64,000 bases of DNA from Steroidobacteraceae bacterium (GCA_050738795.1 JBOIAD010000113.1:131-64130), one strand, 5' to 3'. Shown: positions 4,237-27,374, numbered from the stretch's first letter. Translations and numbers: made by a program. Notes: a model not told the origin generated them from the sequence alone.

Positions 4237-4783
4237 CCAACGCGTCGATGTCTGCAGCCTGAAGCTGCTTGCGCAACTTGTTGAGGTCTTCCAGTTTGGT
4301 GATGGGTCCAATTCGCACGCGGTGCCAGACGTCGGCATCGACCGCCACGCGCTGTACTTTTGCGTCGATGCCCTGCATTGCAAGCTGGGCGCGCACGCGG
4401 TCCGCGTCCGACTCATTGCGGTATGAGCCCGCTTGCAGGACATAGACTCCGGGGCGCTCGACGCGCGCTGCCGCCGGGAGATCGCGTTTGACCTCCTTGT
4501 CTTTTTCGGGGACCACGACTTCGAAGTTCGGCAGCATCTCGTAGAAGTCGTACTTCTCGCCCGTGGACGAGGCCGCTGCCGCCTCGGGATCAGCAGGAGC
4601 CGCGCGGTGGGGGTCCGGCAGCGGCGCCTCGTTCTTCTGGTGACTGGCGTCCCGCTTGCCATTCATGTAGTAGACGCTCACGGCGCTAGCGAGGACGATT
4701 CCGACGAGGGCCCCCGCGCCAAACTCGCGCATCCGCCCCACTTTGAGCGGGCGCCTCCTGGCCTTCTTGTAGTCTCTTGTCAT
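4217..4783 (-). CDS. SPOR-domain (peptidoglycan-binding, FtsN/DedD-like) membrane protein
   Basis: N-terminal TM helix: FGAGALVGIVLASAVSVYY. C-terminal SPOR-like block: YVLQAGSYRNESDADRVRAQLAMQGIDAKVQ...WHRVRIGP. Lies directly downstream of argS, a common gamma-proteobacterial arrangement. Confidence 0.8.
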   Translation of the reverse strand: MTRDYKKARRRPLKVGRMREFGAGALVGIVLASAVSVYYMNGKRDASHQKNEAPLPDPHRAAPADPEAAAASSTGEKYDFYEMLPNFEVVVPEKDKEVKRDLPAAARVERPGVYVLQAGSYRNESDADRVRAQLAMQGIDAKVQRVAVDADVWHRVRIGPITKLEDLNKLRKQLQAADIDALVIRVGD

Positions 4784-4820
4784 GCGCTTCGCGCGAAGCG
4801 CGCCGCAGGAAGCGTCCGGA

Positions 4821-6578: not shown

Positions 6579-6746
6579 GGACTTGAGAGTTCCAGCGCTG
6601 GGCGGGGCGGGAAGTCTACCCCATGCGCAGCGCAGGCCCGCACGCGTTTGCCCCACTGCCGAATTCAGGCATCCTTGCGCCGCCTCAATCACGCAGTTTA
6701 AGGAGGGTCCATGCTGTTCCGCCGCCGCCGACATGCGCGTGAGGGC

Positions 6747-7736
6747 ATGCTGAAGCTCATCACCGCCTATTGGCAGTCGCAGCTCGTCTTCGTTGCCGCG
6801 AAGCTCGGAATCGCCGACGTTCTGGTGGCGGGGCCGATGACCGCCGATGTAATTGCGAGGCGCGTCGGCGCGGATGGGCCGTATCTGCAGCGCGTGCTGC
6901 GCGCGCTCGCCAGTGTAGGGGTTTTCTCGACGGACTCACAGGCGCGCTTCGGTCTCACGCCACTGGCGCAGACGCTGCGAAGCGATCATCCCGAATCGCT
7001 GCGCAACTTCGCACTCATGCTCGTCGATGACTACACCTGGCAGGCGTGGGGCGCCCTCGATCACGCGGTGGTGACCGGAGGCTCCGCCTTCGAGCATGTG
7101 CACGGCTTGCCCGCCTTTCCGTACATGCAGCAGCATCCGGAGAAGGAACGGACTTTCTCGGCGTCGATGGCCAGCATCTCGGCGATGGAGAATTCGGCGG
7201 TGGCGCGTGCGTACGCATTCGGCCGCTTGCACAGAGTCGTCGATGTTGGAGGTGCGCACGGGCACCTGCTTGCCACCATCCTGCGTACCTACCCCAATCT
7301 TCGCGGCGTGCTTTTCGACCAGCCACAAGTCGTGGAGGCCGCCGCTCAGACGGGATTCATCACGGCCCCTGATGTGCACAGTCGTTGCGAAGCCGTGGCC
7401 GGGGATTTCTTCGCATCGGTCCCCGAAGGCGCCGACGCCTATGTCATGAAGTACGTCATCCATGACTGGGACGATGACAGAAGCGTTGGCATCCTCCTCA
7501 ACTGCCGCAATGCAATGGCCGCCGACGGCCGCGTACTCGTCGTGGATCACGTCATCTCGAGCGGCAATCGCCGCGACTGGAGCAAGCTGTTGGACATCAA
7601 CATGATGGTGGTGCCCGGCGGCCGGGAGCGCACGAGGAACGAGTTTCGGGACCTGTTCGGTCGTGCGGGACTGAAGCTCAGGCGCGTCATCGCCACCTCG
7701 TCGTCACTGCATATTCTGGAAGGCGTAACGGCGTAG
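6747..7736 (+). CDS. Class I SAM-dependent O-methyltransferase (dimerisation domain + Methyltransf_2-like)
   Basis: N-terminal winged-helix dimerisation region: ITAYWQSQLVFVAAKLGIADVL. SAM motif: VVDVGGAHGHLL. Also VMKYVIHDWDD. ATG at 6747; the track ORF begins at 6711. Confidence 0.85.
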   Translation: MLKLITAYWQSQLVFVAAKLGIADVLVAGPMTADVIARRVGADGPYLQRVLRALASVGVFSTDSQARFGLTPLAQTLRSDHPESLRNFALMLVDDYTWQAWGALDHAVVTGGSAFEHVHGLPAFPYMQQHPEKERTFSASMASISAMENSAVARAYAFGRLHRVVDVGGAHGHLLATILRTYPNLRGVLFDQPQVVEAAAQTGFITAPDVHSRCEAVAGDFFASVPEGADAYVMKYVIHDWDDDRSVGILLNCRNAMAADGRVLVVDHVISSGNRRDWSKLLDINMMVVPGGRERTRNEFRDLFGRAGLKLRRVIATSSSLHILEGVTA

Positions 7737-7775
7737 CTCGTTGGTCGAGCCTCGCCGCCTGACGACCGGCTTTTC

Positions 7776-7858
7776 GCGGGCAAAAACCACGTTTTTTGCC
7801 CGCGGGTGGACCCACGCCGCGCGCTATGGTCCGCCGAAATCGCCGCAGGCGATTTCGG
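7776..7858. repeat. Double-hairpin repeat (H1+H2 module) between convergent genes
   Basis: H1 is GCGGGCAAAAA-CCACGT-TTTTTGCCCGC (7776-7803). H2 is CCGAAATCGCC-GCA-GGCGATTTCGG (7834-7858). Both have perfect 11-bp stems. Stem differences relative to the copy at 10-64 are compensated. Confidence 0.8.
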
Positions 7859-7866
7859 CCTATAAA

Positions 7867-10074
7867 CTAGTACAGCTCGATCGGGTCCACGTCCAGCGCC
7901 CAGCGCACTCGCCGCGCGCTTTGCAGCTGCTCCACTTCCGGCAGCCACGCATCCAGAAAGCGATGCAGGGCACCGCGCTCCGGGCTTTCGATCAGCAGTT
8001 GGGCGTGATAGCGGCCGGCTCGCCTGGCCATGGCGGCCGGGACCGGGCCTAGAAGCTTCACCTCGCGAGGAGGCTTTGCGAGCCCGCGGGCGTCGGCCAG
8101 AAACGCCAGCGCCGCATCGGCCGTTTTGGCAGAATCCCGTACCGCCGCAAGGCGGCTGAATGGCGGCCACGCCGCCTGGGCACGCTCGGCGAGGGCGGTG
8201 CGTGCGAAGCCGTCATAGCCTTCGGTCAGCAGACTCTGCAACAAGGGGTGGGTCGGGAATTCGGTCTGGATCAGCACCTCGCCGGGGCGCGTTCCGCGCC
8301 CGGCGCGCCCTGCGACCTGCACGATCGTTTGCGCCAGCCGCTCGGGCGCCCGGAAGTCCGTGCTGAACAGACCCTGGTCGGCATTCAACACGACGACGAG
8401 TGTCACGTTGGGGAAGTCATGGCCCTTGGTGACCATCTGCGTGCCGATCAGAATGCGCGCCTCGCCGGAGGCCATGCGGCGCATGGCGGTCTCCATGTCG
8501 CCCCGCTTTCGGACCACATCCCGATCCAACCGGACGAGTGCCACACCGGGGAACAGTGCCGCCAGCGCTTCCTCGATGCGCTCTGTTCCCTGTCCGACGG
8601 TCTTTGTGGCAAACCCACATTGCGGGCATCGCGCAGGGAGCGGCGCGTCCGCTCCGCAATGGTGGCATCTAAGCCGGCCCGCGCTGAGGTGTACGGTCAG
8701 TCTTGCGTCGCATTCGGCGCACGGCGCAACCCAACCACAGGCGGTGCAGAGCAGCGTTGGCGCATAACCGCGCCGGTTGAGAAACACGAGTGCCTGGCCA
8801 TCCTCCTGCAGGTGCCGTTCCATTGCCTGCACGGCCGGCGTCGAGATTCCCGCCTGAACCGCACTCGCGCGCAGGTCAACCAGGGCCATTCGCGGCGGCA
8901 CCGCCTGCTCGGTCCGGCGCGAAAGAGACAAGCGGACGTAGCGGCCGGTCGTCACGTTGTGCAGAGTCTCCAATGCCGGCGTAGCAGAGCCGAGTAACAC
9001 TGGAACGTTTGCGCGTTGTGCCCGCACGACGGCCAGATCGCGCGCGGAGTAGCGGAAGCCTCCTTCGTGCTGCTTGAAAGATGCGTCATGCTCTTCATCG
9101 ACGATGATGATGCCGAGATCGGCCATTGGCGCGAAGATGGCCGAGCGCGTGCCCAGAACGATCCTGGCGCGGCCGCTGAATGCTTCGCGCCAAGCGAGCA
9201 GGCGTTCGTGATCGGTCAGCGCCGAATGCAAGACCGTCATCGGGGCATCGAACCGCTCGCGAAAGCGGCCGACGAGCTGGGGAGTCAGCCCGATCTCCGG
9301 CACCAGCACAAGGGAGCGGCGCCCCAACGATAGAACGCGCTCTGTAAGCCGCAAGTACACCTCAGTCTTGCCGCTCCCGGTCACCCCATGCAGCACGAAC
9401 GCGCCAAAGCGCCCCAGCGATTCGGCGACGGCATGCACGGCGATCTTCTGGTCTTCGGCAAGTGGGGGGCCGGCAACCCGCACTCCGATGGGCTCATTCG
9501 CGGTTGCCGGGGTGATGTCCCGCGATGTGATCCAGCCACGTGCGGCCAATGAGCGCGCGGCGTCCCGCCAATTGGGCATGTGCACGCTCAGAGTATCCGT
9601 GGCAAGACTGTCGTGCTGAACGAGATGCTCGAGCAATTGCCTTTGTTTTGGAGCGCGTCGCGGCTCGCCTCGCGCGCAGGCTTCCTGCCCGGTCCCGGTT
9701 GCGCTCCAGTGCTCCTCGGTCGCACTGGCGCTTGCACCCAATCGAAGCGCCTTGGGCACGGCGGCGGAAACGACCTCACCGGCCGGATGGTGGTAGTACT
9801 CCGCCGCCCAGCGCAGTAGCCCGAGCGCGGCGGGGTCGAGAATGGGCCGGGAATCCAGGATCTCCAGGATCGCTTTCAGGCGCTCGGGAGGCAGGTCTGA
9901 CGAGTCCGCGACCTCCATGACCATGCCGACCAGCCGTTGCCGGCCGAAGGGTACGCGAACGCGAGTTCCGGGCTTGATGCACGCATGGTCGGGCGCCGCA
10001 GCGGCGGTCCCGGGCGGCAAATAGTCGAACAGGCGCCGCAGCGGCGTGTCGAGCGCAACGCGAAGGACCGTCAT
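7867..10074 (-). CDS. priA: Primosomal protein N' (replication restart helicase)
   Basis: Conserved N-terminus MTVLRVALDTPLRRLFDYLPP at ATG 10074. Walker A: HGVTGSGKTEVY. DEEH box. Cys-rich zinc region: CTACGW...CAECD...CHHCG...CPQCG. The track ORF is over-extended to 10722. Confidence 0.93.
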   Translation of the reverse strand: MTVLRVALDTPLRRLFDYLPPGTAAAAPDHACIKPGTRVRVPFGRQRLVGMVMEVADSSDLPPERLKAILEILDSRPILDPAALGLLRWAAEYYHHPAGEVVSAAVPKALRLGASASATEEHWSATGTGQEACARGEPRRAPKQRQLLEHLVQHDSLATDTLSVHMPNWRDAARSLAARGWITSRDITPATANEPIGVRVAGPPLAEDQKIAVHAVAESLGRFGAFVLHGVTGSGKTEVYLRLTERVLSLGRRSLVLVPEIGLTPQLVGRFRERFDAPMTVLHSALTDHERLLAWREAFSGRARIVLGTRSAIFAPMADLGIIIVDEEHDASFKQHEGGFRYSARDLAVVRAQRANVPVLLGSATPALETLHNVTTGRYVRLSLSRRTEQAVPPRMALVDLRASAVQAGISTPAVQAMERHLQEDGQALVFLNRRGYAPTLLCTACGWVAPCAECDARLTVHLSAGRLRCHHCGADAPLPARCPQCGFATKTVGQGTERIEEALAALFPGVALVRLDRDVVRKRGDMETAMRRMASGEARILIGTQMVTKGHDFPNVTLVVVLNADQGLFSTDFRAPERLAQTIVQVAGRAGRGTRPGEVLIQTEFPTHPLLQSLLTEGYDGFARTALAERAQAAWPPFSRLAAVRDSAKTADAALAFLADARGLAKPPREVKLLGPVPAAMARRAGRYHAQLLIESPERGALHRFLDAWLPEVEQLQSARRVRWALDVDPIELY

Positions 10075-10185
10075 GGGGTATTCTAAATCAATGGCTTGCG
10101 CTGGCCGCGCGGAGTCAACCAGGTCCGGCGCACGCGCGTTATACATCGCATGTCTGGGTTTGCTACGCTCGCGCCGCCTTATAGC

Positions 10186-10776
10186 ATGCCGTCGGCAACA
10201 TACGGCGACGTGGAACTGTCGGATTCGACTACAAATACCCAATCTCGTGCGCTGAACCAGTTTCTGGCCGGCGTCGAGCTGAAGGCATTCAAGATTGCCC
10301 AGGCGGCGCTGCGCCACGAGGACGACGCGCTCGATGCTGTGCAGGATGCGATGCTTCAGCTTGCGCGCGCGTATGCCGGCAGGCCGGCAGAAGAATGGAA
10401 GCCGCTGTTCTATCGCATCCTCGAGAACCGGATTCGGGACATCCAGCGCCGCCGGACGGTGCGCGGCCGTGTGATTTCCTGGCTGCCGTACCGGGGCGAC
10501 GATGACGAGGATGAGCTGGATCCGATAGCGCAGGCGCCCAGCGCCGACCCACAGCCACCGCGCCGTCTGGAGATAGCGGAGGCGATGGGAGCCCTGGATC
10601 GTGCACTCGAGGCGCTGCCCCGGCGGCAGCAACAGGTGTTCATGCTCCGCACGCTCGAAGGGCTCGACGTGGCGCAGACGGCGACGGCGATGGGCTGCTC
10701 GCAGGGCAGCGTGAAAACACATTATTTTCGCGCGCTGCAGACACTTCGCGCGCGACTCGGAGAGTTCTGGACATGA
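10186..10776 (+). CDS. ECF-type RNA polymerase sigma factor
   Basis: Sigma70 region 2: DDALDAVQDAMLQLARAYAG...WKPLFYRILENRIRDIQRRR. Region 4: LPRRQQQVFMLRTLEGLDVAQTATAMGCSQGSVKTHYFRALQTLR. ATG at 10186; alternative upstream starts exist back to 10096. Confidence 0.88.
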   Translation: MPSATYGDVELSDSTTNTQSRALNQFLAGVELKAFKIAQAALRHEDDALDAVQDAMLQLARAYAGRPAEEWKPLFYRILENRIRDIQRRRTVRGRVISWLPYRGDDDEDELDPIAQAPSADPQPPRRLEIAEAMGALDRALEALPRRQQQVFMLRTLEGLDVAQTATAMGCSQGSVKTHYFRALQTLRARLGEFWT

Positions 10777-11491: not shown

Positions 11492-12092
11492 GGGGCAATC
11501 CCTCGTACTGGTCGGGCTGCTGGCGGCGGCCACGCCGGCATTGGCGCAACAGGAAACGCCGCCGCAGCCCATTGCACCGCCGGCAGCCCAGGCGCCTTCC
11601 CAGGGCCAGGCGCCCTCCCAGGGCCAGGCGCCCTCCCAGGGCCAGGCGCCCTCCCACGGCGTTCCCTGGTCGAGCCTTTCCGCGGATCAGCAACGGCTGT
11701 TGGGACGTTTCGGCAACGACTGGAATACGCTGCCGCCGGAGCGTCAGCAGGCACTCGCGCGCGGCAGTGATCGATGGCTGGGCATGTCGCCGGAACAGCG
11801 TGAGCGCGCTCAGCGGCGCTTCCAGCGATGGCATTCCCTGCCCCCGGACCAGCGGCGCGCGCTGCGCGATCGCTGGGAGAGATTTCAGTCGCTGCCGCCC
11901 AATGAGCAGGCAGCCGTCCGACAGAATTTCCGTAGATTTCAGCGGTTACCGCTGGACAAGCGCAGGGATCTGCGCGAGCAATGGCGCAATGCCTCGCCCG
12001 CGCAGCGGCAGCACATGATTCAAGAGGTGCGCGAGCATCGGATGAGGCGCATGCAGATGCACGCGCCGCCCCCGCGGCACCCTCGTCATTGA
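11484..12092 (+). CDS. DUF3106-like secreted repeat protein
   Basis: ATG at 11484, overlapping the upstream gene by 8 nt. Signal peptide: LVLVGLLAAATPALAQQ. Contains four QAPS(Q/H)G repeats, then iterated modules such as RAQRRFQRWHSLPPDQRRALRDRWERFQSLPPNEQAAVRQNFRRFQRLPLDKRRDL. Confidence 0.75.
   Translation: MSKGQSLVLVGLLAAATPALAQQETPPQPIAPPAAQAPSQGQAPSQGQAPSQGQAPSHGVPWSSLSADQQRLLGRFGNDWNTLPPERQQALARGSDRWLGMSPEQRERAQRRFQRWHSLPPDQRRALRDRWERFQSLPPNEQAAVRQNFRRFQRLPLDKRRDLREQWRNASPAQRQHMIQEVREHRMRRMQMHAPPPRHPRH
11589..11660 (+). repeat. In-frame 18-bp tandem repeat x4 (CAGGCGCCYTCCCAGGGC) encoding QAPSQG
   Basis: Units at 11589, 11607, 11625 and 11643. The last unit has one mismatch (CACGGC). 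Confidence 0.9.
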
Positions 12093-16922: not shown

Positions 16923-17101
16923 GACCCCGAAGACCACCCCAGGAAATCAAGCTTGCATCCGCACACGAGCTTCAACCGTCGACCAGGATGCTTGATTTCC
17001 CGGGGACCCCGGTGAAACCACCCCAGGAAATCAAGCTTGCATCCGCACACGAGCTGCAACCGTCGACCAGGATGCTTGATTTCCCCGGGGACCCCGGTGA
17101 A
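16923..17101. repeat. Two tandem 84/85-bp palindromic elements (P family, REP/MITE-like)
   Basis: Each unit has 11-bp perfect inverted arms GGAAATCAAGC (16942, 17026) and GCTTGATTTCC (16990, 17074) around a 37-nt core containing GTCGAC. The units are bounded by GACCCCG(A/G)..GA direct repeats at 16923, 17005 and 17090. Related copies lie at 27411-27483 and 42512-42586. Confidence 0.9.
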
Positions 17102-18010
17102 GAGCCGGGGGGTGGGGAATTGATCTTTCTGATCGACGCTTCGGTCTACGTGTTCCGTGCGTATCACTCCGTGCTGCCCGACATGATCGATCGGGACGGC
17201 AATCCGGTGCACGCGGTGTTCGGATTCGCCCGCTTCGTGGGCGATCTGATCGAGCGCATGCGCCCAAGATACATCGCGGTGGCTTTCGATCAACGGCTCG
17301 CCAACTCCTATCGCAGCCGCATCTATCCGGCCTACAAGGCGAACCGCGAGCCGCCCCCAGTGGATCTCCCCGCGCAATTCGAGCGCTGCCGGCAGGTGTG
17401 CCGCCACCTCGGGCTCGCGGTATTCACCCATCCGGAATACGAAGCCGATGACATCATCGGCACCCTTGCATGCCAGATGCGGGAGGAGGGTGTGCGCTCG
17501 GCCTTCATTACGCGCGACAAGGATCTCGCGCAGCTCATGCGCGACGGCGACCTGTTCTGGGATTACGGGGCGCGCGAGCAATTCGGCTACCACGACATAG
17601 AACGGCACTACGGCGTTGCGCCTGAGAGGTTTGCCGACTATCTCGCACTCACGGGTGATTGCGTCGACAACATTCCGGGCGTCCCGGGAATCGGACCCAA
17701 AACGGCAGCCGTGCTGATGAAGGAATTCGCATCCCTCGACGATCTGTATGCCGGTCTCGGGCGCGTGGCCGGTCTGAAGCTGCGCGGCGCAAAGACACTC
17801 AGTGACCGGCTGCGCGAGCATCGCGAGTCCGCCTACCTGGCGCGGCAGCTCACGCGCATCACCTGCGACATGGAGCTTGGCGTGGGCGTCGAGGGGTTGC
17901 GCCGCCGGGCGCCGGATGTCTGCGCACTGGGTGGCCTGTACGACCAACTGGGCTTCGGGCCATTTCTGCGCCGCCAGGGAGACCGGCTGGCGCAGCTGGC
18001 CCTGGATTGA
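17072..18010 (+). CDS. Stand-alone 5'-3' exonuclease / flap endonuclease (Pol I N-terminal domain-like)
   Basis: Conserved residues: LIFLIDASVYVFRAYHS...AVAFDQ...RSRIYPAYKANR...EADDIIGT...TRDKDLAQL, plus H3TH region GDCVDNIPGVPGIGPKTA. The start is uncertain: ATG 17072 lies inside repeat copy 2, and an in-frame TTG at about 17120 directly precedes the conserved core. Confidence 0.88.
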   Translation: MLDFPGDPGEEPGGGELIFLIDASVYVFRAYHSVLPDMIDRDGNPVHAVFGFARFVGDLIERMRPRYIAVAFDQRLANSYRSRIYPAYKANREPPPVDLPAQFERCRQVCRHLGLAVFTHPEYEADDIIGTLACQMREEGVRSAFITRDKDLAQLMRDGDLFWDYGAREQFGYHDIERHYGVAPERFADYLALTGDCVDNIPGVPGIGPKTAAVLMKEFASLDDLYAGLGRVAGLKLRGAKTLSDRLREHRESAYLARQLTRITCDMELGVGVEGLRRRAPDVCALGGLYDQLGFGPFLRRQGDRLAQLALD

Positions 18011-18065
18011 GCCGCCTCCCGCGTTGATCGCCGCGGAAGCGGAGCCGCTCCCGGCGGACTCAGCG

Positions 18066-18716
18066 TCAGCTTTGATGGTCCTCGTCGGCGGGTGGCGATT
18101 CGCCCGCAATGCATCCAAGCGGCTCGCCTGAGCCATCCGGACCGCGCGCCTCGAGGTGCACCGTGCGTCCCCTGAGAAGCTGGGTGTCGATGCGCACGAG
18201 CTGGCTGCCATCCGGCTGCATTCGCGCCGCATAATGCGCGGCCGGAAGCTCGTGCCTCTCGGAATCCAGGGCCACGACTCGCAGCTCTCTGGATACTCCA
18301 GGCACTCGCAGAAGCGCCAATTGCGTATCGGCCGCCAGATGCAGCGTAGTGCACTCGTCCGCACCGCGCGTCACGGAAGGGACGTTGAACACAACAGTCT
18401 CCGTAGAGTCGAGGTCGGTCACTTGCGCGCTCCTTCCGGCCCAGCCGCCCGCGGCACCCACGACTCCTGCGCCCAGCAGCGAAGCGGCCATGCGCCAATC
18501 GGTAAACGCAGGCAGATACTGCTTGCGGGCCGGTGGACGCACCGCGGGACGCTGTTCGGGCATGTCGAGCCTGATCGCGCGCCAGGCCTCGACATCATCA
18601 ACACATTCGGCGCACCCCATCATGTGCAGCTCGAACGCCTCTTGCGTGCTCTCATCCAGGCCGTCCGCGACATAGCAGGCAGCCGTCTGATTCGTCTTGA
18701 ACTGTGTGTGGTCCAT
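18066..18716 (-). CDS. Zinc-finger (HxxxCxxC) single-pass anti-sigma factor
   Basis: ATG at 18716, 8 nt after the sigma stop. ZAS-type motif: HMMGCAEC. TM helix: MAASLLGAGVVGAAGGWAG. About 130-aa periplasmic C-terminal domain. The track ORF is over-extended to 18953. Confidence 0.8.
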   Translation of the reverse strand: MDHTQFKTNQTAACYVADGLDESTQEAFELHMMGCAECVDDVEAWRAIRLDMPEQRPAVRPPARKQYLPAFTDWRMAASLLGAGVVGAAGGWAGRSAQVTDLDSTETVVFNVPSVTRGADECTTLHLAADTQLALLRVPGVSRELRVVALDSERHELPAAHYAARMQPDGSQLVRIDTQLLRGRTVHLEARGPDGSGEPLGCIAGESPPADEDHQS

Positions 18717-18724
18717 GGTATTCC

Positions 18725-19375
18725 CTACTCCTTGGTCGATTGCGCAGATCCCGACTCGCCAACCGCGAACCCGTGCCTGCGGAGGATTTCGCCGAATCGT
18801 TGGCGTGCGCGCCAGAGGACCTGATTGAACTGCATGTCGGTCAATTGCAACGACTCGCGGATCGCAATCCGCGGCTCTTCCTGGAGGTAGTACCGTACCA
18901 ACACTTCGCGGTCGCGCTGCACGGGCAGATGGCCCATGAGATCGCGCACGCATCTGGCGAGTTGCTCGTGGTCAAGGCGTTCTTCCAGCGACAGCGCCTC
19001 GTCCTTGAGATTCGTGAGCAACTCCCGATCGTTGTCGTGCCGGTGTGAAAGCTCTCCGCGCCAGTAGGCCGTGGCGAGCTTGCATGCCGTGCGATAGAGA
19101 TAGCCTCCCAGATTGTGCGGGTCATCCAGACCCTCGCTACGGATCTTCTTGATCGCCTGCAAAAACGTGCGCTGCAACAGGTCCTCGGCGGCATCGCGAG
19201 CGATGCGTCTGTGCAGGAATACCTGTAGCAAGGGCCTCCGATATCTCACGTAAAGTTGATTTTGGAGGCTCGTCCGCTCGGCAATGGCTTCTACGAGCGC
19301 TGAATCGTCACGGGCAGCGCGGTCCAGGGGCTTGTCGGGGCAGATCTCTGCCGGCGGTGATTCGATATATGTCAT
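18725..19375 (-). CDS. ECF-type RNA polymerase sigma factor
   Basis: Region 2: AAEDLLQRTFLQAIKKI...GGYLYRTACKLATAYWR. Region 4: LPVQRDREVLVRYYLQEEPRIAIRESLQLTDMQFNQVLWRARQRF. ATG 19375 overlaps the TGA of the upstream S8 gene (ATGA). Confidence 0.88.
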   Translation of the reverse strand: MTYIESPPAEICPDKPLDRAARDDSALVEAIAERTSLQNQLYVRYRRPLLQVFLHRRIARDAAEDLLQRTFLQAIKKIRSEGLDDPHNLGGYLYRTACKLATAYWRGELSHRHDNDRELLTNLKDEALSLEERLDHEQLARCVRDLMGHLPVQRDREVLVRYYLQEEPRIAIRESLQLTDMQFNQVLWRARQRFGEILRRHGFAVGESGSAQSTKE

Positions 19376-20586
19376 GGAGGCGCTTCCCGCTTCGATCCTG
19401 GCTGGCGACAAACGCGCGCTGTCCGGCCCTCCGTTTGCAGTAGGCAAGCATCGGCTAGCGGGACCCCGTCTAAGTATGGCGTCCGCGCCCCAGGTTTAGA
19501 ACGGCGTGGAGTTTTGAGCATTTGCCCTTGTACGACCCTTGCCAGGAACTCGTCTGTATTCAATTTAGCATAGGGAGGCCTTGCCCAGATGCCGGCCAGC
19601 AGACCCGCGAGGATGGCCGTGGAGTTCGAGCTTCCTTGTTCGAGCTGGTAGCGGTTGGGCGGCGAGCCTGCGCCGATCACACAGGCGCTGGGAGACCCCA
19701 GGTTGAGCCCCAGCGGCGCTGGGCTCGTCCCCGGGGAGATCATGTCGTCGTTTCCGATCGGCACGGCCCGGACGATCCGCCGGAAGCGGTATGCGGCAGG
19801 AAAACCGGCGGCAGGCTCTCCTTTGTTGGGCACGCTGGCCACCACGACTGCCGCGCGGGGCGAATCAGGCCGATCGGCGATCTCGGCAAACGCGCTATCC
19901 AGCTCGGGTGTCGTGGCATTCCAATGAGCGCTGAAGCTCAGGATCCGGGCGCCCATGCGTGTTGCATAATTCAGTGCCCGCACCAGGCGTTGTGGATTCG
20001 CATCGTCGTCCACACCCCGATTGCAGCCGACGACACGCAGGATCATGAGGCGTGCGCCATCTGACCCGGCCGCGGCGATTCCCACGCCGTTGTTTCGCCG
20101 GGCCGCCACCAGGCTTGCCATCAGCGTGCCGTGGCTGAAACGCGAACGGCATTCGCCCTTGGGAGAGACATCGGCGCTGTCATCGACGAAGTCCCATCCG
20201 TGGACGTCGTCAACATAGCCATTCCCGTCGTCGTCAACTCCTGGCTTGCCGTGTGCCTCTGCCTCGTTGGTCCAGAGCTGATTGCGCAGATCTTCGTGGT
20301 CGATATAGGCGCCATCGTCGAAGACGGCGACGATGACGGGCTTGTCGGCTTCGTGGTCACTCCAGGCCAGCGAGCCGGCGACGTAGTCAACCCACCATAG
20401 ATTGCCCGCCCGATAGGCGCAGTCGCTCGTGGCAGCATCGTCCACTGGCGTGGACGGCAGAAGCGTTGAGCACTTCAGCGGTTGGCACGGAAACGCCCCT
20501 GCGTCCTGCGCCGGGGCCGGTGGGACAGAGCGGGTGATGAGGAGGAGCAAGCCCACCCCAGCCGCACGGAGGGTGCCCGGCGTCAT
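19372..20586 (-). CDS. Secreted S8 family (subtilisin-like) serine peptidase
   Basis: Signal peptide: AAGVGLLLLITRSVPPAPAQD. Asp region: VIVAVFDDGAYIDHEDL. Ca-binding-like stretch: VDDDGNGYVDDVHGWDF. His region: SHGTLMASLVAA. Ser region: GSSNSTAILAGLLAGI. Confidence 0.88.
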   Translation of the reverse strand: MTPGTLRAAGVGLLLLITRSVPPAPAQDAGAFPCQPLKCSTLLPSTPVDDAATSDCAYRAGNLWWVDYVAGSLAWSDHEADKPVIVAVFDDGAYIDHEDLRNQLWTNEAEAHGKPGVDDDGNGYVDDVHGWDFVDDSADVSPKGECRSRFSHGTLMASLVAARRNNGVGIAAAGSDGARLMILRVVGCNRGVDDDANPQRLVRALNYATRMGARILSFSAHWNATTPELDSAFAEIADRPDSPRAAVVVASVPNKGEPAAGFPAAYRFRRIVRAVPIGNDDMISPGTSPAPLGLNLGSPSACVIGAGSPPNRYQLEQGSSNSTAILAGLLAGIWARPPYAKLNTDEFLARVVQGQMLKTPRRSKPGARTPYLDGVPLADACLLQTEGRTARVCRQPGSKREAPP

Positions 20587-20726
20587 GCCGCAATTCTAGT
20601 CGCGTGCCGCAGCCGAAACCCGGACTTGATCGGCGCCCTTGCGCCAAATGCGGGATCCCCAGGCACAGGATCCCTTGGGGCGGCCCTCGGCACGCCCCAG
20701 GGAAGCCGCGCACATCCGCCGGCAAA

Positions 20727-21314
20727 TCAGTCGCTGCTGTGGATCACGCCGTCGTCATCGAGCTTGACGGAAGTCGGCGAGTTGACCGACTGCATCACGA
20801 TGATCGCGGCGGCGTCACCGGTCACATCGCGTGGGAAGATCAGTACGTGTTCCAACTGTCCCTGAATCCTCGCAAGTCCATACCAGTGCTGCTGCTCATA
20901 ATACGGCTCGGATGCCTGCGCATAGCCCGACATCGCGAGGAACGGCGAGCTCGCCTCCTGGCCGGGAATGCACTCGAAGTCCGCGGGTATGCTGGTCATC
21001 TTCGTGCCGGGGCGGTACTCGAGCTTCATGCCGTTCCAGTTGGCGGCCCAATGTTGCTGAGCGCCATCCTGCGCCTCGAGCACATAGCTGCCGTCCTCGG
21101 CCGGGCGGGGCACTATCCGGAATTTGAGGCCGGTCTGCACGCGGGCCGCGAGCCCGGCGTGTTGCTCGGTGCAGTTCTTCGATACGGTCCATGTCTTGAA
21201 GAAATAGCCGGGGACGGTGGCCGCTTCGGCGGGTGGCGCCGTCGCCGCCCAGCCGACGAGCAAACACTGGGCGATGATCGATGAAGACAGGGATACCTTG
21301 CGGGACAGGGACAT
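20727..21314 (-). CDS. Secreted hypothetical protein (195 aa)
   Basis: Good SD (GAGGAG) upstream of ATG 21314. Signal peptide: IIAQCLLVGWAATAPPAEA. Non-repetitive, balanced composition with two Cys. I do not recognise a family. Confidence 0.65.
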   Translation of the reverse strand: MSLSRKVSLSSSIIAQCLLVGWAATAPPAEAATVPGYFFKTWTVSKNCTEQHAGLAARVQTGLKFRIVPRPAEDGSYVLEAQDGAQQHWAANWNGMKLEYRPGTKMTSIPADFECIPGQEASSPFLAMSGYAQASEPYYEQQHWYGLARIQGQLEHVLIFPRDVTGDAAAIIVMQSVNSPTSVKLDDDGVIHSSD

Positions 21315-21438
21315 GGAGTTCTCCTCGGAGGGTGCACGGCAGGGATGAAACGAATCCGCGGTACATCACTGCTGCGAGGAGGCTGCTTATCTCAGGGAGA
21401 CTTCCGGCTTCAGGCCACGGGCCGACCGCTTGCGAGAT

Positions 21439-24400
21439 CTACAGGGTCGTGTCGGGCCAGCCGTGGAGCGCAAACGCCGCCCAGTCATAGGAGGAGGAAG
21501 CGGTGGCCTGATCGAGCTGCGCCCTGCGCAGGGCGGCCGACGCCGGCAGACGGTCGAGCAGCAAATATCTGTAGAACTGCCGCATGAAGCTCGAGGTGCT
21601 CCGATCGTCGATGCGCCAGTAGCTTGCGATGACGGCAGCCGCGCCCGCCTGCAGGAAGGCTTGTGCCGGACCGAGTACACCTTCACCCGGGAGCAACCGG
21701 CCGCGCGACGTCTCGCACGCGCTGAGTACGACCAGGCTGGAATGCAACTTCAGTGCCAGAATATCCAGCAGCCCGAAAGCGGATGCCGGCCTGCCGGTGC
21801 CCTCTTCGGGTGTCAGTGCGAGCGCCGACAGGCGGGGGCGTTGAGCGTCCACCCGGGCGTGAGTTGCAATGTGCAGCAGATCAACATGTTCATCCGCCGC
21901 GCGGCGCAATGCGCCGGGTACGGCAGCGCACCCGAGAAGCGTCTCGACGCGGCCGGCCGGTCTCGATTGCCGCGCTAGCTGTGCAACCATCAGAACCTCG
22001 GCACGGCTGCCGGGCAGGCGCGGCAGGGCCTCGGTCCAATCGAAGGCCGCCCGCGTGACAGGCTTTGCGCTCGACTCTCCCGCGGCGTCCAGACACTCGT
22101 GGTGCCAGTCGGAAATCCTGAATACGGGGTCGCCGATCAGCTCGATCCGTGGCGCGCTGGCGCGCCCAGCGGAGGGTGTGTGCCCCTGCGTCAGAAACAG
22201 TGCGGACGGCATGATGGACGTTTCCGCATGTTGCAGAACCGTCTGGGCCGCGAAGTTGGAAGACCAGGGAAGTACATTGAATGGAATAGTGTGCAAGGCA
22301 TCGTCGGGCACGAAAATGATCCGTTTGCCGGACAACCTGCTGGTGAGGGGCCACAACGCGAGCCGCGCCAGGCGCTCGGCGGCGGAGCGAACCGTACTGG
22401 CAGGCGACTCGGGGTCCCGCAGCAGCTCGCGCAGCTCGCCGGCCGCGGCGGCGATTTCGCGCCGCCCGCCCAGTTGCACGAGTTGGGCGCTGCCGTTGCC
22501 GTCGATCACGAAAGCAAACATGTCCCGCGAGCCGGCGGCATACTCGACCAGCGTGGCGTCGAGTCGTCCGAGAGCCTGCTTGAGCTGGTTGCGGTCGAAT
22601 GGCTCGACCGTGCCGCGCTCCCGCCGCACTGCGCTGTCCAGCTCGGCGAGCAGGTCCTGATGCTCGGCGCCTGCATTCGCATTGGCGAGCTGAACCACCT
22701 CCCGCAACAACTGTCGATATCGCGCGGCCGGGGGTGCCTCGAGCGGCGACGAGGCATCTCGCTTCGTCTGAGTGATTGCATACCGCAAGCTGCGCGCGCG
22801 TCCCCGCTCCGAAGTCTCGAACGCCAACCACGTCATATCGGGATCAGCTCCTGCTTGCGAGGCATACAGGTCCATCAGCTCCGCGAAGACGGTGTACTGC
22901 GTAGCCAGATAGGTGGCGCGCTTCTCGCCATCGAGCTGGTCGATCGGGACCGCTTCGATCAGATCGGCGGCGGTCTGCAGTGTGCGCGCGGCTTGCGCCG
23001 GCAGCCGTGATGCGCGGTAACCCGCGGAGATGAGCCGCAACGAAGTAACGGTCTGATCGATGTCGCCCCGCGCAACGCTGGTTTCCAGCGCCCGGGTGGA
23101 GTCCTGCAGCGTGCGGGCGCCGTTGCCGGCAAGCAGTGCCGATTTCACGACGCCGAGTTGAGCTGCGCCGCGGTGCTCGTAGGTCGCCGGAAGCGCCGCG
23201 TTGTCGGCGATGCGTAGCGCCCGCCTGAAGCTCGTTTGCGCTCCTTCGGCATCGTTACGTTCCAGAAGCATCGTGCCGCGTGCGTTTGCGAGACGAACCT
23301 GTGTGCGCGAATCCGCGGCGTAAGGGCCGGCGGCATCGAGACAGTGCTGCGCCCGGGCGTCGTCGCCTTCCATCATGAGGAGGTCGCCTAGCGAGAGCAG
23401 CGCATCGAAGACGACGATCCTGTTGGCAGCCGCAAGCGTACGCGCATCGAGAGAATGCCTGCACAACTGCGTGTGTCCGGTATCCGCAGGGGCGGAGAAG
23501 CGATCTGTCGGCGGCGGCCCGGAGGACGCGGACGAGTCAGTTCCGGCAGGGAGGGCCGCGCCGGCCGATGCCAGCAACTCGGGACAGTCGAGCGATGCTG
23601 CGTGCTGCAGGTCATTCTCCGCGTCGGCGAGAGTGCCGATCTGCACCAGGAGACTGCCAGAGCGCGCAAGCGTGCGGCGTACGCCGGGGCAATCTCCGAG
23701 CCCTGCGTACTCGCGCATTGCCGCCGCGTGCGAGTGTGCGCTGCTGCTGAAGAGACCCACTACGCCCTGCAGGCGCCCGAGGTTGTTCCAGATGTCCGCG
23801 GCCACTTTCGGGTCGAGCTCCGGCCGCAGAGCACGCAAGGCGTCCCCATACGCTGACAATGCAAATGCGTAGTTCTTGTCGGCCTCCGCAAGCAGCGCAA
23901 GATTCTGACTTGCGATCGCGTAGCAATCCCAGTCCTGCAGGGCGCGGCAGCTTCGTGCGGCCTGCGCGAAGAGCTCGCGCGCCTTTGCAGGGGCGTCGAG
24001 CATGTACTCGAGAAACCCGGTCATGATGTCGAGTCGCGGCAGCTCGCGCGCACCAGCGCCGCTCGCGGCGTCGTATTTGCGCGCTACGAATAGCCGTTCG
24101 CGCACCCTCGGTGCGACAACATGGACATCGCCGCCTGGCATATCGAGCAGCGCTTTGCCCTGCAGACCGGCGAGCAGGCCGGTAAAGATCGGATCGACCG
24201 CGGTAAAGATCGGATCGGCCTGTTCGCCGTAGTCGGCAAGAGCCTGTCCCGCGAGCGCATAGCTGTCGCGTTTGCGATCGAATCGGCGATACGCCAACTC
24301 TGCCATGGCGTGACGTGCCTCGGCCGACGCCCGCCGCAGACGCTGTCGATCAAATCCGCGAGCGGCGCTGAGGTATTCATCAAAAGCCGTGTTCCAGTCC

Positions 24401-24873
24401 CGCCTCTGCGTGGCGTGGCCCGCAGCGGCGAATGCCCTCTGTGCCCATAAGCCCCTCTCGATGGGCTTCACGAGAGCCGCCGAGATACATGCCTCACCGC
24501 GGATTTCCGGCGAGTCCTGCGCGCGAATACTGACGATGTGCGAATCGGCGTGGCGCACGCCCGTGACCAGTACGATGGTACCGAAGCGCTCGACCGGGCT
24601 TGCCGCCGCAGTCGCCGGATCGTGATCCAGCGTGGCGATGACCGACACCCCCCGTTCTTCGATCCTGATGTCCAGGACGCCGGCGCTGGGCGCGGCAATG
24701 TCCCATGAGGCTTCGACGGTTCCGCCCACCGGGCGGCACGTTCGGAGAAGGATATTCTGCGATGAAGCCTTCGAGCCGCAGGCTGTCAGGAGCAGGCACG
24801 ACGCAAGGACGGCCAGCCAGCCACAGGCGCCCTGGCTGGGCGAGAGCCGCAACGTGCCGGCGGGTGTCGACAT
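21439..24873 (-). CDS. Lipoprotein with N-terminal beta-rich domain, long TPR-like helical repeat region and C-terminal CHAT (caspase-like) protease domain
   Basis: Signal peptide plus lipobox: WLAVLASCLLLTAC. Central Ala/Leu-rich helical repeats. The C-terminal CHAT domain carries the His/Cys dyad: LLHIATHARVD...LVVLSACETSRG...AAAVIASYWRIDD. Confidence 0.88.
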   Translation of the reverse strand: MSTPAGTLRLSPSQGACGWLAVLASCLLLTACGSKASSQNILLRTCRPVGGTVEASWDIAAPSAGVLDIRIEERGVSVIATLDHDPATAAASPVERFGTIVLVTGVRHADSHIVSIRAQDSPEIRGEACISAALVKPIERGLWAQRAFAAAGHATQRRDWNTAFDEYLSAARGFDRQRLRRASAEARHAMAELAYRRFDRKRDSYALAGQALADYGEQADPIFTAVDPIFTGLLAGLQGKALLDMPGGDVHVVAPRVRERLFVARKYDAASGAGARELPRLDIMTGFLEYMLDAPAKARELFAQAARSCRALQDWDCYAIASQNLALLAEADKNYAFALSAYGDALRALRPELDPKVAADIWNNLGRLQGVVGLFSSSAHSHAAAMREYAGLGDCPGVRRTLARSGSLLVQIGTLADAENDLQHAASLDCPELLASAGAALPAGTDSSASSGPPPTDRFSAPADTGHTQLCRHSLDARTLAAANRIVVFDALLSLGDLLMMEGDDARAQHCLDAAGPYAADSRTQVRLANARGTMLLERNDAEGAQTSFRRALRIADNAALPATYEHRGAAQLGVVKSALLAGNGARTLQDSTRALETSVARGDIDQTVTSLRLISAGYRASRLPAQAARTLQTAADLIEAVPIDQLDGEKRATYLATQYTVFAELMDLYASQAGADPDMTWLAFETSERGRARSLRYAITQTKRDASSPLEAPPAARYRQLLREVVQLANANAGAEHQDLLAELDSAVRRERGTVEPFDRNQLKQALGRLDATLVEYAAGSRDMFAFVIDGNGSAQLVQLGGRREIAAAAGELRELLRDPESPASTVRSAAERLARLALWPLTSRLSGKRIIFVPDDALHTIPFNVLPWSSNFAAQTVLQHAETSIMPSALFLTQGHTPSAGRASAPRIELIGDPVFRISDWHHECLDAAGESSAKPVTRAAFDWTEALPRLPGSRAEVLMVAQLARQSRPAGRVETLLGCAAVPGALRRAADEHVDLLHIATHARVDAQRPRLSALALTPEEGTGRPASAFGLLDILALKLHSSLVVLSACETSRGRLLPGEGVLGPAQAFLQAGAAAVIASYWRIDDRSTSSFMRQFYRYLLLDRLPASAALRRAQLDQATASSSYDWAAFALHGWPDTTL

Positions 24874-24912
24874 GCTGATAGCGGAATTCGTGAAATGGCC
24901 GGCAGCGCAGCG

Positions 24913-25017
24913 GCCGTTCTACGCCATAACGGCGATCCATGCCATGAGTCGCCGTGCTACGCCATGAGCATCCATGCCAGGAGCCGCCGTTCTACGCCAT
25001 AAGGACGATCCATGCCA
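24913..25017. repeat. Three imperfect ~35-38-bp direct repeats in the divergent CHAT/acs intergenic region
   Basis: Copies at 24913-24944, 24951-24979 and 24986-25017. Core motif: GCCGT(T/G)CTACGCCAT(A/G)A..(N)GATCCATGCCA. Confidence 0.85.
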
Positions 25018-25130
25018 AGCCTTCCCGGCGCGGACTGCGTCCGCTTGCGGGACGCTCACGGATGCCCTGCGAAACTCGGCTACGCTATGCTCGTGGGCAG
25101 CGCAGGCTTCAGTGCCCGAGGCGGAAGAAC

Positions 25131-27374
25131 ATGACGAACCGGAATATCGAGTCAGTGTTGCTGGAGGAGCGGTCCTTTCCCCCGCCGCCGGACTTCGCGG
25201 CGCAGGCGGGCCTGAAGGCTGCCGACCTGCAGCGGCTGCAGCGCGCCGCGGCCGCGGATCACACGGGATTCTGGGCGGATCTCGCCCGGCAGGAGCTGAC
25301 CTGGCAAACCCCCTTCACCGTCGCGCTGGACGACTCGCGCGCCCCCAACTATCGCTGGTTCACGGACGGGCGGTTGAATGTCTCCTTCAATTGCCTCGAC
25401 ATCCATCTGCAGGAGCGCGGCCACAAGACGGCGATCATTTTTGAAGGCGAGGGCGCAGATACGCGGCGCCTGAGCTATCGCGAGCTGCATACCGAGGTGT
25501 GCCGGTTCGCGCGTGCCCTGAAGGCACAGGGCGTGCAGCGCGGCGACCGCGTGATTATCTATATGCCGCTGATTCCAGAAGTGGTCATCGCGATGCACGC
25601 GTGCAACCGGATCGGCGCGGTTCACTGCGTGGTGTTCGGGGGATTCTCGGCTCCGGCGCTGAAGGACCGGATCGTGGACACCGAGGCCAAGATCGTCATC
25701 ACCGCGGACGGCGGCTGGCGCGCAGGAAATGTAGTCGAGCTGAAGGCAGCGGCGGATAAGGCGCTCGCCTCCGGCTGCCCCAGCGTCAAGCGCGTCATTG
25801 TGTTTCGGCGGACGGGCAAGCCCGTGGCCATGGATGCAAAGCGCGACCTGTGGTGGCACGAAGCAATCGAGGGCCAACCGCCCACATGCGAGCCGGAGTG
25901 GGTCGACGCGGAGCATCCGCTGTTCCTGCTGCACACCTCGGGCTCGACCGGCAAGCCGAAGGGAATCCAGCATTCGAGCGGCGGCTATTTGCTGGGCGCC
26001 AAGGTGACGACCAAGTGGATATTCGATCTTCGGGATGACGATGTGTTCTGGTGCACCGCCGACGTGGGCTGGGTCACGGGACACAGCTATGTGGCCTATG
26101 GGCCGCTGGCAGCCGGCGCAACCGTCGTGCTTTACGAAGGCGCGCCCACGACTCCGGATGCGGGCAGACTCTGGAAGATCTGCCAGACGCATGGAGTCAG
26201 TATCTTCTACACCGCACCGACCGCGATTCGTGCGTTGATGAAGCTGGGGGAGGAGTGGCCGGCGAAATACGATCTTTCGCGCCTGCGCGTCCTCGGCAGC
26301 GTCGGCGAGCCGATCAACCCGGAGGCCTGGATGTGGTATCACCGCGTGATCGGCAAGGGCCGCTGCCCGATCGTGGATACCTGGTGGCAGACCGAGACCG
26401 GCGCCATACTGATTTCCCCGCTGCCGGGCACCACATCCACGAAGCCCGGGTCCTGCACGAAACCGCTGCCCGGCATCGATGCCGATATCGTGGACGACGA
26501 CGGCAAGCCGGTGAGCAAGGCGGAAGCGGGCGGCTATCTGGTCATCAAGAAACCTTGGCCCTTCATGCTGCGAACGCTGTGGCGTGATAACGACCGCTAC
26601 CTCTCAGCCTACTGGCAAAAGTTCAAGAACCGCTACTACGTCGCCGGCGATAGCGCCCGGCGCGACAAGGATGGCTATTTCTGGATCATGGGGCGCATCG
26701 ATGACGTGTTGAACGTGGCCGGGCACCGTCTGGGCACGATGGAGATCGAGTCCGCACTCGTTTCGCATCCAAGGGTGGCGGAAGCCGCCGTCGTCGGCAA
26801 GCAACACGAGATCAAGGGCGAAGCAGTGTTTGCGTATGTCGTGTTTCGCGGGCAGCGTCCGACCGGCGACACCGCCGCGATGGTGGAAGAGTTGCGCAAT
26901 TGGGTCGCGGAGCAGCTCGGCGCAATTGCCAAGCCGGACGAGATCCGGTTCGCGGACAATCTGCCGAAAACCCGCTCCGGGAAGATCATGCGCCGCCTGC
27001 TGCGATCGATAGCGCGCGGCGAGCCGATCGTGCAGGATGTCTCGACGCTGGAGAATCCGGCGATTCTCGACCAGCTGCGCGGAGTGGATGAGGGGCAGGC
27101 GGCGGCGGCCAAGCCTGCGGCCGGGAAGTCCCGGCCGAGTGCACGGAAGCCGGCTGCGAAGCGATTTGGCGCGAAGCGATCGCCTGGGAAACGATCGCCA
27201 GCGAAAAAATCGCCTGCGAAGGGATCGCGTGCGAGTAAATCGGCGGCCCCGAAGGGCAGATCGCAAAAATCCCGGGCGAAGAAAAAATCCCGGGCGAAGA
27301 CGAGCACAGTAAAGCCCAAGCGCCCGCCGGGGAGGCAGACCAGGAAGACGACAGCCAGACGGAAAAGGCGCTAG
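25131..27374 (+). CDS. acs: Acetyl-CoA synthetase with a ~92-aa polybasic C-terminal extension
   Basis: ATG 25131 ([13 protein letters not shown]). AMP-binding motifs: [39 protein letters not shown]. Conserved regulatory lysine context: [11 protein letters not shown]. The tail runs 27096-27371. The track ORF is over-extended to 24954. Confidence 0.95.

Follow-up and report, generated by a model that had tools for sequence, protein, structure and literature searches.

Can a CHAT-domain protease communicate with sigma factors of the extracytoplasmic function (ECF) type outside of CRISPR? DdvA of Myxococcus xanthus is the one case studied, and the question is raised again by a locus in a 64-kb stretch of Steroidobacteraceae DNA (the whole of which is called the window below). 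Here, five co-directional open reading frames (ORFs) on the minus strand, spanning positions 18066–24873, encode a TPR-CHAT lipoprotein, a secreted protein of 195 amino acids (p195), a secreted S8 subtilase, an ECF sigma factor, and a zinc anti-sigma factor. The proteases have intact active sites, the proteins bear export signals, the genes are conserved together across a lineage, and they are accompanied by three promoter-like elements, one of which is a cis element shared with another gene of the window. Perhaps, then, proteolysis in the periplasm gates the release of the sigma factor from its anti-sigma factor. This is the reading we tentatively favor, although our confidence in the model as a whole falls somewhat short of even. 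The initial annotation of the locus put forward a possible CRISPR-independent, protease-gated sigma switch, an idea already in print by way of DdvA/DdvS and ECF group ECF54.

The five genes and their products

The genes of the module, in the order in which they are read, are:

21439–24873, minus strand: TPR-CHAT lipoprotein, 1144 amino acids
20727–21314, minus strand: p195, secreted, 195 amino acids
19372–20586, minus strand: S8 subtilase, secreted, 404 amino acids
18725–19375, minus strand: ECF sigma factor, divergent, 216 amino acids
18066–18716, minus strand: zinc anti-sigma factor, single-pass, 216 amino acids

All five ORFs were found where the initial annotation had placed them, as were the gaps of 124 nt between CHAT and p195, 140 nt between p195 and S8, and 8 nt between sigma and anti-sigma, and the ATG of the sigma gene does overlap the TGA of S8 (as ATGA, 19372–19375). 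The G+C content of the window is 64–67%.

The sigma factor belongs to the ECF group (group 4), matching the NCBIfam sigma70-ECF model TIGR02937 over residues 38–194 (51.1 bits against a cut-off of 42.9). In Pfam it is found by Sigma70_r2 alone (2.9e-06, 27.4 bits against a cut-off of 24), the sigma-4 region being covered solely by the NCBIfam model, and its matches to NCBIfam equivalog and subfamily models all lie far under their cut-offs. No sigma factor in the PDB matches it at E<0.01, and no relatives were found on plasmids at 1e-8.

The protein encoded next to it has the zinc motif and the adjoining sigma factor that characterize a class I zinc-binding anti-sigma factor, and it is predicted to bind and inhibit that sigma factor. 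The sequence HMMGCAEC is present, as the initial annotation had it, and the residues H3, H31, C35, and C38 (in the arrangement H3...H31-x3-C35-x2-C38) are invariant in 24 orthologues. (Residue conservation was assessed over 23–29 distinct orthologues in all: 23 for CHAT, 26 for S8, and 24 for the anti-sigma factor.) The Pfam score for zf-HC2, 20.9 bits, is slightly under the cut-off of 22.2, but NCBIfam model NF052375 (anti-sigma) matches at 3.7e-05, PF13490 is precomputed on several of the orthologues, and there is a weak match to RslA (3HUG) over HxxxCxxC. On the far side of the membrane segment, the most conserved periplasmic stretch is a juxtamembrane linker, TDLDSTxTVVFNxPSVxRG, followed by a domain (about residues 120–206) with an invariant pair of cysteines, C122 and C202. 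The AlphaFold2 model of the protein is poor overall (predicted local distance difference test, pLDDT, 55), with three N-terminal helices of low confidence, but residues 120–206 reach a pLDDT of 71–86. Foldseek matches them to I-set immunoglobulin (Ig) domains (E 2e-4, target-normalised TM-score 0.55–0.60), and the ectodomain thus models as Ig-like.

The S8 subtilase matches Peptidase_S8 in Pfam at 7.5e-17. Its Asp, His, and Ser contexts, described earlier as intact, align with the triad of deseasin 3VV3, and FDDG, SHGT, and GSSNS are invariant in the orthologues. It begins with a signal peptide, and Pfam detects no I9 propeptide in it.

The CHAT protein consists of a signal peptide, a beta-rich N-terminal region, a long run of helical repeats (with weak Pfam matches to TPR_12 and TPR_2), and a C-terminal CHAT domain at residues 831–1138, which matches the Pfam CHAT profile at 5.9e-52 over positions 3–288 of 289. 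Both the His/Cys dyad (HIATHA and LSACET) and the lipobox (LLLTAC) that had been noticed in it are there. H1001, H1005, and C1052 are invariant, so that the catalytically dead CHAT domain that careful alignment might have revealed appears in none of the orthologues aligned. The sole hydrophobic segment of the protein is N-terminal (residues 14–34), the lipobox Cys is kept across the N-termini of the orthologues, and the residue at +2 is mostly not Asp. By the rule for E. coli lipoproteins, this suggests tethering to the outer membrane, and the protein is probably anchored there, facing the periplasm. As to its kin, a sequence search of the PDB turned up nothing meaningful, the closest being Csx29 (8D9H) at E 0.39. 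As that search gave no chain beyond Csx29, homology of this protein to DdvA by sequence was rejected. The Csx29 model NF041237 matches at 18.3 bits (8e-4) against a cut-off of 300, and PADLOC reports a weak match to BovA (6.4e-05).

The remaining protein, p195, was thought at the outset to belong to no recognized family, and it indeed has no match in Pfam, NCBIfam, or PADLOC. Its gene has the highest G+C at third codon positions of the five (0.82). The AlphaFold2 model (mean pLDDT 71, predicted TM-score 0.71) is an 8-stranded barrel preceded by 31 disordered residues, as expected for a signal peptide. The top 50 Foldseek matches in the PDB are almost all calycins (lipocalins and fatty acid-binding proteins), and weak (E 0.016–0.3, TM-score 0.37–0.48), so the model points weakly to a calycin-like barrel. 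A kinship between p195 and the anti-sigma ectodomain was considered and rejected (hhalign probability 0.1%).

It had been predicted that every component except the sigma factor faces the periplasm. Judged by N-terminal sequences and invariant pairs of cysteines, all four do look exported. Outside the active sites, S8 has eight invariant cysteines, CHAT about ten, and p195 and the anti-sigma ectodomain two each, which fits with an oxidizing compartment.

Conservation within the family and recurrence beyond it

Searching a single genome for each GTDB species with p195 as seed yielded 27 loci, every one from Steroidobacteraceae or from an unclassified gammaproteobacterial metagenome-assembled genome (MAG), with no named cultured species among them. 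By tblastn, the five genes and their flanks stand in constant order at one chromosomal site in 27 of the 27, as far as the contigs reach; all five genes are present in 21, and the other six are interrupted by contig ends yet consistent. Identity to the proteins of the window is 65–82% for S8 (the best conserved part other than sigma), 57–85% for sigma, 44–63% for CHAT, 41–75% for p195, and 41–71% for the anti-sigma factor. The flanking genes are of the housekeeping sort: a divergent acs-like gene for an AMP-binding protein on one side and, on the other, a convergent 5'-3' exonuclease; an HNH nuclease, pntAA, pntAB, and pntB are also found there. An 84-nt tandem repeat (16933–17101, 2.0 copies, 97% identity) fills the space from the HNH gene to where the exonuclease gene begins.

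Conserved synteny in related genomes was one of the checks that the initial annotation called for. The order is conserved in the 27 related species, but this is weaker than it sounds, as the housekeeping flanks are conserved likewise. Conserved flanks imply a gene order inherited vertically within one family, and the module is evidently an old, vertically inherited feature of an uncultured Steroidobacteraceae lineage.

The reach of the individual families is similar. Homologues of p195 carry the label Steroidobacteraceae. They form 590 clusters at 90% identity, but in a set of 1.84 billion proteins the family has just 36 representatives at the 50% level, and the anti-sigma family (465 clusters) has much the same range. 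Going by sequence similarity, the two are confined to the Steroidobacteraceae/Gammaproteobacteria MAG lineage. An anti-sigma orthologue (P0254) 70% identical to that of the window is labeled Chloroflexota by NCBI; it lies on a contig of 2.3 kb, and the label is most likely a binning error. There are a few other oddities: in one case (P0139) the C-terminus of CHAT reads as if fused to p195, in a second (L013) the CHAT ORF is broken, and in a third (L028) the sigma and anti-sigma ORFs are shortened. These are probably frameshifts in MAGs or errors of assembly, or else the module may be decaying in some lineages.

Recurrence beyond the family was examined through plasmid relatives of the CHAT domain, and two of the contexts found are similar in kind. 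On plasmid pACIX901 of Granulicella tundricola (Acidobacteriota; 4523–9374 of the extracted locus, L112), an exported TPR-CHAT protein is immediately followed by a divergent ECF-like protein (TIGR02989 at 3e-10, below threshold) and then by a single-pass protein resembling an anti-sigma factor, which lacks the Cys ligands and has a beta-rich ectodomain of about 130 residues; both downstream genes are annotated as hypothetical. On plasmid 2 of Gemmatirosa kalamazoonensis (Gemmatimonadota; 1760–9674 of locus L115), an ECF-like sigma gene overlaps an S8 gene by 4 nt, and after these come a short ORF and two large TPR-CHAT genes. The S8 in this case is of 250 amino acids, without a signal peptide and cytoplasmic-looking; the first TPR-CHAT protein has a signal peptide. 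The Gemmatirosa cluster, which is unannotated, resembles the published ECF54 context, though it comes from Gemmatimonadota. CHAT relatives in Paraburkholderia and Variovorax lie in other contexts. Orthology of the sigma, S8, and anti-sigma proteins of Gemmatirosa and Granulicella with those of the module was rejected, BLASTP giving nothing significant.

Transcription units and a shared upstream element

The five genes do not look like a single operon. CHAT, p195, and S8 each have a conserved promoter-like element of their own in front of them, and tight coupling is confined to S8, sigma, and anti-sigma. There appear to be three transcription units: CHAT, p195, and S8-sigma-anti-sigma. The elements concerned, with a second copy of one of them and a second sigma gene that bears on their interpretation, are:

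24909–25018, minus strand: promoter-like cTTGGCA-N16-CGTAGAA upstream of CHAT, in a 35-nt unit present in 2.9 tandem copies (Tandem Repeats Finder)
21368–21394, minus strand: TGAGATA-N15-GCAGT, 54 nt upstream of the p195 ATG
20593–20598, minus strand: TAGAAT, a -10 box 6 nt before the S8 ATG
1491–1517, plus strand: second exact copy of TGAGATA-N15-GCAGT, upstream of a gene (1588–4236, plus strand) for a response regulator with PAS, GAF, GGDEF, and EAL domains
10096–10776, plus strand: second ECF sigma factor (Sigma70_r4_2, 4.8e-17), about 7–8 kb from the module

The elements were seen through cross-species alignment alone; a generic scan of the locus for sigma-70 promoters and terminators missed them, giving nothing above what shuffled sequences give.

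Before S8, the sequence TA(C/G)AAT (rarely TAAGAT, TATGAT, or TAACAT) stands 5–7 nt from the start codon, with no Shine-Dalgarno sequence, in 22 of 25 loci. As for the other three, L028 fits once its start is reassigned, L001 has a spacing of 9 nt by the start chosen, and in L004 no such box was found. No conserved -35 sequence was found upstream of S8 across the orthologous loci. A -10 box so close to an ATG that has no Shine-Dalgarno sequence implies a leaderless mRNA from a promoter of the housekeeping type, and the S8-sigma-anti-sigma mRNA does look leaderless. Also, 22 of 25 loci preserve the 4-nt overlap between the S8 stop and the sigma start, and nearly all have a gap of 6–15 nt between sigma and anti-sigma. 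Together with the leaderless geometry, this points to one tightly coupled unit. A GC-rich hairpin closing the p195 unit abuts the -10 box of S8 in several loci. In the window itself, an intrinsic terminator in the 140-nt gap between p195 and S8 was rejected, since the gap folds no better than its shuffles (z -0.6).

The element before CHAT occurs in 19 of 27 loci, in one copy where it is found in orthologous loci. The unit repeated in the window (TTGGCATGGATCG..TTATGGCGTAGAACGGC) differs from a clean sigma-70 -10 box in lacking the T at -7, and it has CGTA within it. The repeat runs into what is annotated as the 5' end of the divergent AMP-binding ORF; that ORF probably starts further downstream. 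A sigma-54 reading of the TGGCA box before CHAT, and of the TGAGATA element as well, was rejected on inspection, as neither the spacing nor the GC at -12 fits.

Before p195, TGAGATA-N15-GCAGT is exact, and in single copy, in 30 of 31 loci, its two halves invariant in the alignment. In the orthologues it lies 66–81 nt upstream of the p195 ATG (counted from the start of the motif), followed by a variable hairpin and then by a conserved GAGGAG Shine-Dalgarno sequence. No known RNA element accounts for this leader: Rfam gave no match at E<=1 over 17500–25500 other than a chance viral hairpin. An exact match would be expected by chance about 0.008 times in 128 kb. A scan of metagenome sequences found TGAGATA-N15-[GC]CAGT conserved upstream of 13 orthologues of the GGDEF-EAL gene, and in 972 kb all 45 matches to the element, against about 0.2 expected by chance, sit upstream of either p195 or the GGDEF-EAL gene. 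The element is thus a candidate promoter for an alternative sigma factor, and the GGDEF-EAL gene may, tentatively, be placed in the regulon of p195. That gene, 20 kb from p195, lies directly 3' of a gene (100–1467) for a sigma-54-dependent response regulator, and a conserved hairpin, ACCCGA...TCGGGT, follows its copy of the element.

Which sigma factor might read the element? The ECF sigma factor of the module is one candidate, and the second one, at 10096–10776, may be an alternative reader. The latter is followed by two small ORFs of no known family (to 11491), one with a lipoprotein-like N-terminus, an arrangement that L001 and L004 share. Just 3' of these ORFs, an 18-nt unit (CCAGGCGCCCTCCCAGGG) is repeated in 4.1 tandem copies with 96% identity (11588–11660).

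Separate promoters invite a quite different view of the locus, that CHAT, p195, and S8 are outputs or neighbors of the sigma factor and not its regulators. In that case, the ECF/anti-sigma pair would answer some other envelope cue, and the three proteins might constitute a periplasmic or surface system for proteolysis or maturation, either controlled by the sigma factor or sharing the locus by descent. Conserved neighbors, as those who devised the ECF classification emphasize, may be targets no less than regulators (PMC7826278). CHAT and p195 carry promoter-like elements of their own, that of p195 is not sigma-70-like and could be an ECF target promoter (making p195 an output), and the flanks of the module are conserved to the same degree as the module. 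We nonetheless judge this view to be on the unlikely side, although it has considerable weight. S8 lies upstream of sigma within a leaderless unit, overlapping it in the 22 loci mentioned above, which is the position of a stoichiometric partner and not of a downstream target. Furthermore, an exported CHAT protein beside genes for a sigma factor and something like an anti-sigma factor recurs in unrelated phyla, and DdvA unites both functions in one protein.

Precedents and a possible route to sigma release

Protease-gated release, our preferred reading, has several precedents, and the question is how far the module goes beyond them. The initial annotation took the type III-E CRISPR system as the link between CHAT proteases and ECF sigma factors. 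The link is real, but it is not the sole one, and DdvA/DdvS and ECF54 are closer to the case at hand.

DdvA is a single-pass zinc anti-sigma factor to which a periplasmic TPR-CHAT domain with a His-Cys dyad is fused, and its degradation depends on RseP once the ectodomain has been removed (PMC11506125). Signal-induced self-cleavage by CHAT has been proposed as the site-1 step, although the trigger was not identified and self-cleavage could not be demonstrated; fusions like DdvA are reported from Myxococcota and a single Comamonas alone (PMC11506125). The module resembles DdvA/DdvS in its ECF sigma factor, its single-pass HxxxCxxC anti-sigma factor, its periplasmic TPR-CHAT protein with an intact dyad, and, by analogy, its proposed logic of a cut at site 1 by CHAT followed by RseP. 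Unlike in DdvA, however, the CHAT protein of the module is a separate lipoprotein and not the ectodomain of the anti-sigma factor. The two genes lie about 2.7 kb apart with two others between them, and CHAT and anti-sigma are separate in all 21 complete loci. What takes the place of CHAT in the anti-sigma factor is a predicted Ig-like ectodomain of about 100 residues. The module also adds an S8 protease and a calycin-like protein, and it is set among housekeeping genes rather than in a defense island.

In Actinobacteria, ECF54 sigma factors have, as summarized in the literature, a carboxypeptidase, a subtilase, and a CHAT protein as conserved neighbors and no anti-sigma factor, and proteolytic control of the sigma factor has been proposed (PMC8999054; PMC7826278). 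By this published description, the module is alike in having subtilase and CHAT-domain proteins near an ECF sigma factor and differs in having a zinc anti-sigma factor, no carboxypeptidase, a gammaproteobacterial host, and exported proteases.

The module is not a type III-E Craspase (Cas7-11, Csx29, Csx30, and an RpoE-like sigma factor). It does share with Craspase a genetic link between a TPR-CHAT protein and an ECF-like sigma factor, and cleavage of the partner of that sigma factor as the proposed switch. However, cas genes, crRNA, and Csx30 are all absent, and the CHAT protein is exported, unlike the cytoplasmic Csx29. The absence of cas genes noted in the initial annotation is borne out: in the 64-kb window there is no ORF longer than that of CHAT, hence none the size of Cas7-11, and no CRISPR-like array, and the match to the Csx29 model is far below its cut-off.

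Could the locus be an anti-phage or conflict system all the same, with the envelope CHAT protein detecting some phage component and turning on defense genes, in the way suggested for DdvA/DdvS or in that of type III-E Craspase? DdvA/DdvS controls a CBASS-CRISPR island (PMC11506125), and CHAT has the matches to PADLOC BovA and to the Csx29 model given above. Still, we consider a defense role very improbable. The site lies between housekeeping genes in all 27 genomes, with no defense genes flanking it, the other four proteins have no match in PADLOC, the window has neither a CRISPR array nor a large cas ORF, and the candidate regulon consists of p195 and a cyclic di-GMP enzyme, not defense genes. 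With a weak BovA match for CHAT alone and a housekeeping context, defense was set aside as the main interpretation.

Regulated anti-sigma proteolysis takes a familiar form in the sigma-E pathway of E. coli, where RseA is the single-pass anti-sigma factor, RseB its barrel-like partner, DegS (of family S1) the site-1 protease, and RseP the site-2 protease. Like that pathway, the module has a single-pass anti-sigma factor whose periplasmic part is small, a serine protease of its own in the periplasm as candidate for site 1, and possibly a barrel-like gate. It differs in that the site-1 candidate is of family S8 and not S1, that there is an additional, caspase-like lipoprotein, and that p195 is not a homologue of RseB. 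As for the family of the protease, the site-1 protease of the eukaryotic SREBP pathway (S1P, which acts with S2P) is an S8 subtilase, like the candidate here, and so provides a mechanistic precedent. RseB, a lipid-binding barrel-like protein that shields RseA, does the same for a barrel-like protein that gates cleavage at site 1.

The module does not make up a category of its own. It represents an exported version, divided into separate proteins, of the CHAT/anti-sigma design of DdvA and of the ECF-subtilase-CHAT neighborhood seen in ECF54. Beyond these precedents it has, as far as models and alignments allow, a barrel protein peculiar to the lineage, an anti-sigma ectodomain of Ig-like type, and S8, sigma, and anti-sigma in one leaderless unit, and it has a distinctive shared cis element as well.

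How might such a switch work? At rest, the single-pass zinc anti-sigma factor would hold the ECF sigma factor at the inner membrane, its Ig-like ectodomain borne on the conserved linker. One leaderless and apparently constitutive mRNA would supply S8, sigma, and anti-sigma, the start of sigma coupled to the stop of S8, and the CHAT lipoprotein and p195 would be made as neighbors of this unit from promoters of their own. An envelope signal, sensed by the TPR-CHAT protein or p195 or both, would then license site-1 cleavage of the anti-sigma factor in its ectodomain or linker. S8 would be the site-1 candidate most closely coupled to the rest, because sigma is translated from the S8 mRNA, the two genes overlap at stop and start, and S8 is better conserved than any part other than sigma. 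CHAT might cut directly, as a co-protease, or might activate S8. The role of p195 could be that of a gate, a ligand-binding partner, or a product of feedback. A general RseP-type site-2 protease and cytoplasmic proteases would finish the job of freeing the sigma factor, which would most likely read TGAGATA-N15-GCAGT, leading to more p195 (feedback) and more of the GGDEF-EAL enzyme of cyclic di-GMP metabolism (output). The architecture, as predicted from sequence, is compatible with regulated intramembrane proteolysis: the anti-sigma factor is single-pass, with a small ectodomain and a conserved linker, and periplasmic proteases are encoded beside it. The parts of this scheme that we infer are the pairing of protease with substrate, the nature of the signal, and the choice of sigma factor for the TGAGATA element.

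A more elaborate form of the scheme is a relay of three tiers, in which an outer-membrane-tethered TPR-CHAT protein licenses S8, a lipocalin-like p195 acts as gate, and S8 clips the Ig-like ectodomain, whereupon the sigma factor reads the TGAGATA promoter, linking envelope sensing to cyclic di-GMP turnover. We think so specific a relay improbable.

A simpler form makes S8 the sole site-1 protease. CHAT would then serve for sensing or as a scaffold, without turning its caspase-like site on the anti-sigma factor. In this form, p195 would be a ligand-binding or inhibitory shield, covering the anti-sigma factor or S8 until a hydrophobic ligand binds, after the manner of RseB, staphostatin, or AprI-type barrels. 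Staphostatins and the inhibitors of serralysins are barrels of 8 strands, and their genes adjoin those of their proteases. The coupling of S8 to sigma and anti-sigma is tight, S8 has no I9 propeptide or inhibitor domain of its own, and p195 models as a calycin-type barrel. Also, the CHAT site of DdvA is in an inactive geometry at rest, and mutants in its dyad are expected to be silent in the absence of signal (PMC11506125). However, the His and Cys of CHAT are invariant in orthologues only 44–63% identical, which argues that catalysis has been retained, the calycin match is weak (E about 0.02, TM-score below 0.5), and no similarity of p195 to known inhibitors was detected. All told, we regard S8 acting alone as unlikely, if less so than the full relay.

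Several considerations weigh against protease gating in general, the reading to which we return. Cutting of the anti-sigma factor by S8 or CHAT is plausible, and it is something we infer. The initial annotation described one transmembrane helix and a periplasmic domain of about 130 residues. A single segment there is (about residues 74–94), but it is rich in Gly and Ala and moderately hydrophobic, with a Kyte-Doolittle maximum of 1.29 over 19 residues. The structural models of p195 and of the anti-sigma factor are of medium quality or worse. With flanks conserved like the module, synteny within the family does not by itself prove a functional linkage, and the recurrence outside the family is one of domain types, which combine there in different orders and topologies, and not of an orthologous module. 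With three promoter-like elements, the regulation of CHAT and of p195 could be independent of that of the sigma unit. Finally, ECF promoters commonly bear AAC and CGT hallmarks. The TGAGATA element has neither, and with a second ECF sigma factor nearby, giving the element to the sigma factor of the module is a guess.

If the proteases proved to be mere neighbors or targets of the sigma factor, then the locus would be an ordinary, lineage-specific ECF module. Otherwise, its interest is threefold. Because protease and presumed substrate are separate proteins here, the idea of CHAT as a site-1 protease becomes testable in trans. If S8 does cleave the anti-sigma factor, then a bacterial subtilase would join the site-1 proteases, mirroring S1P of the SREBP pathway. 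And in a soil lineage that is abundant yet uncultured, the switch may provide an output from a sigma factor to cyclic di-GMP.

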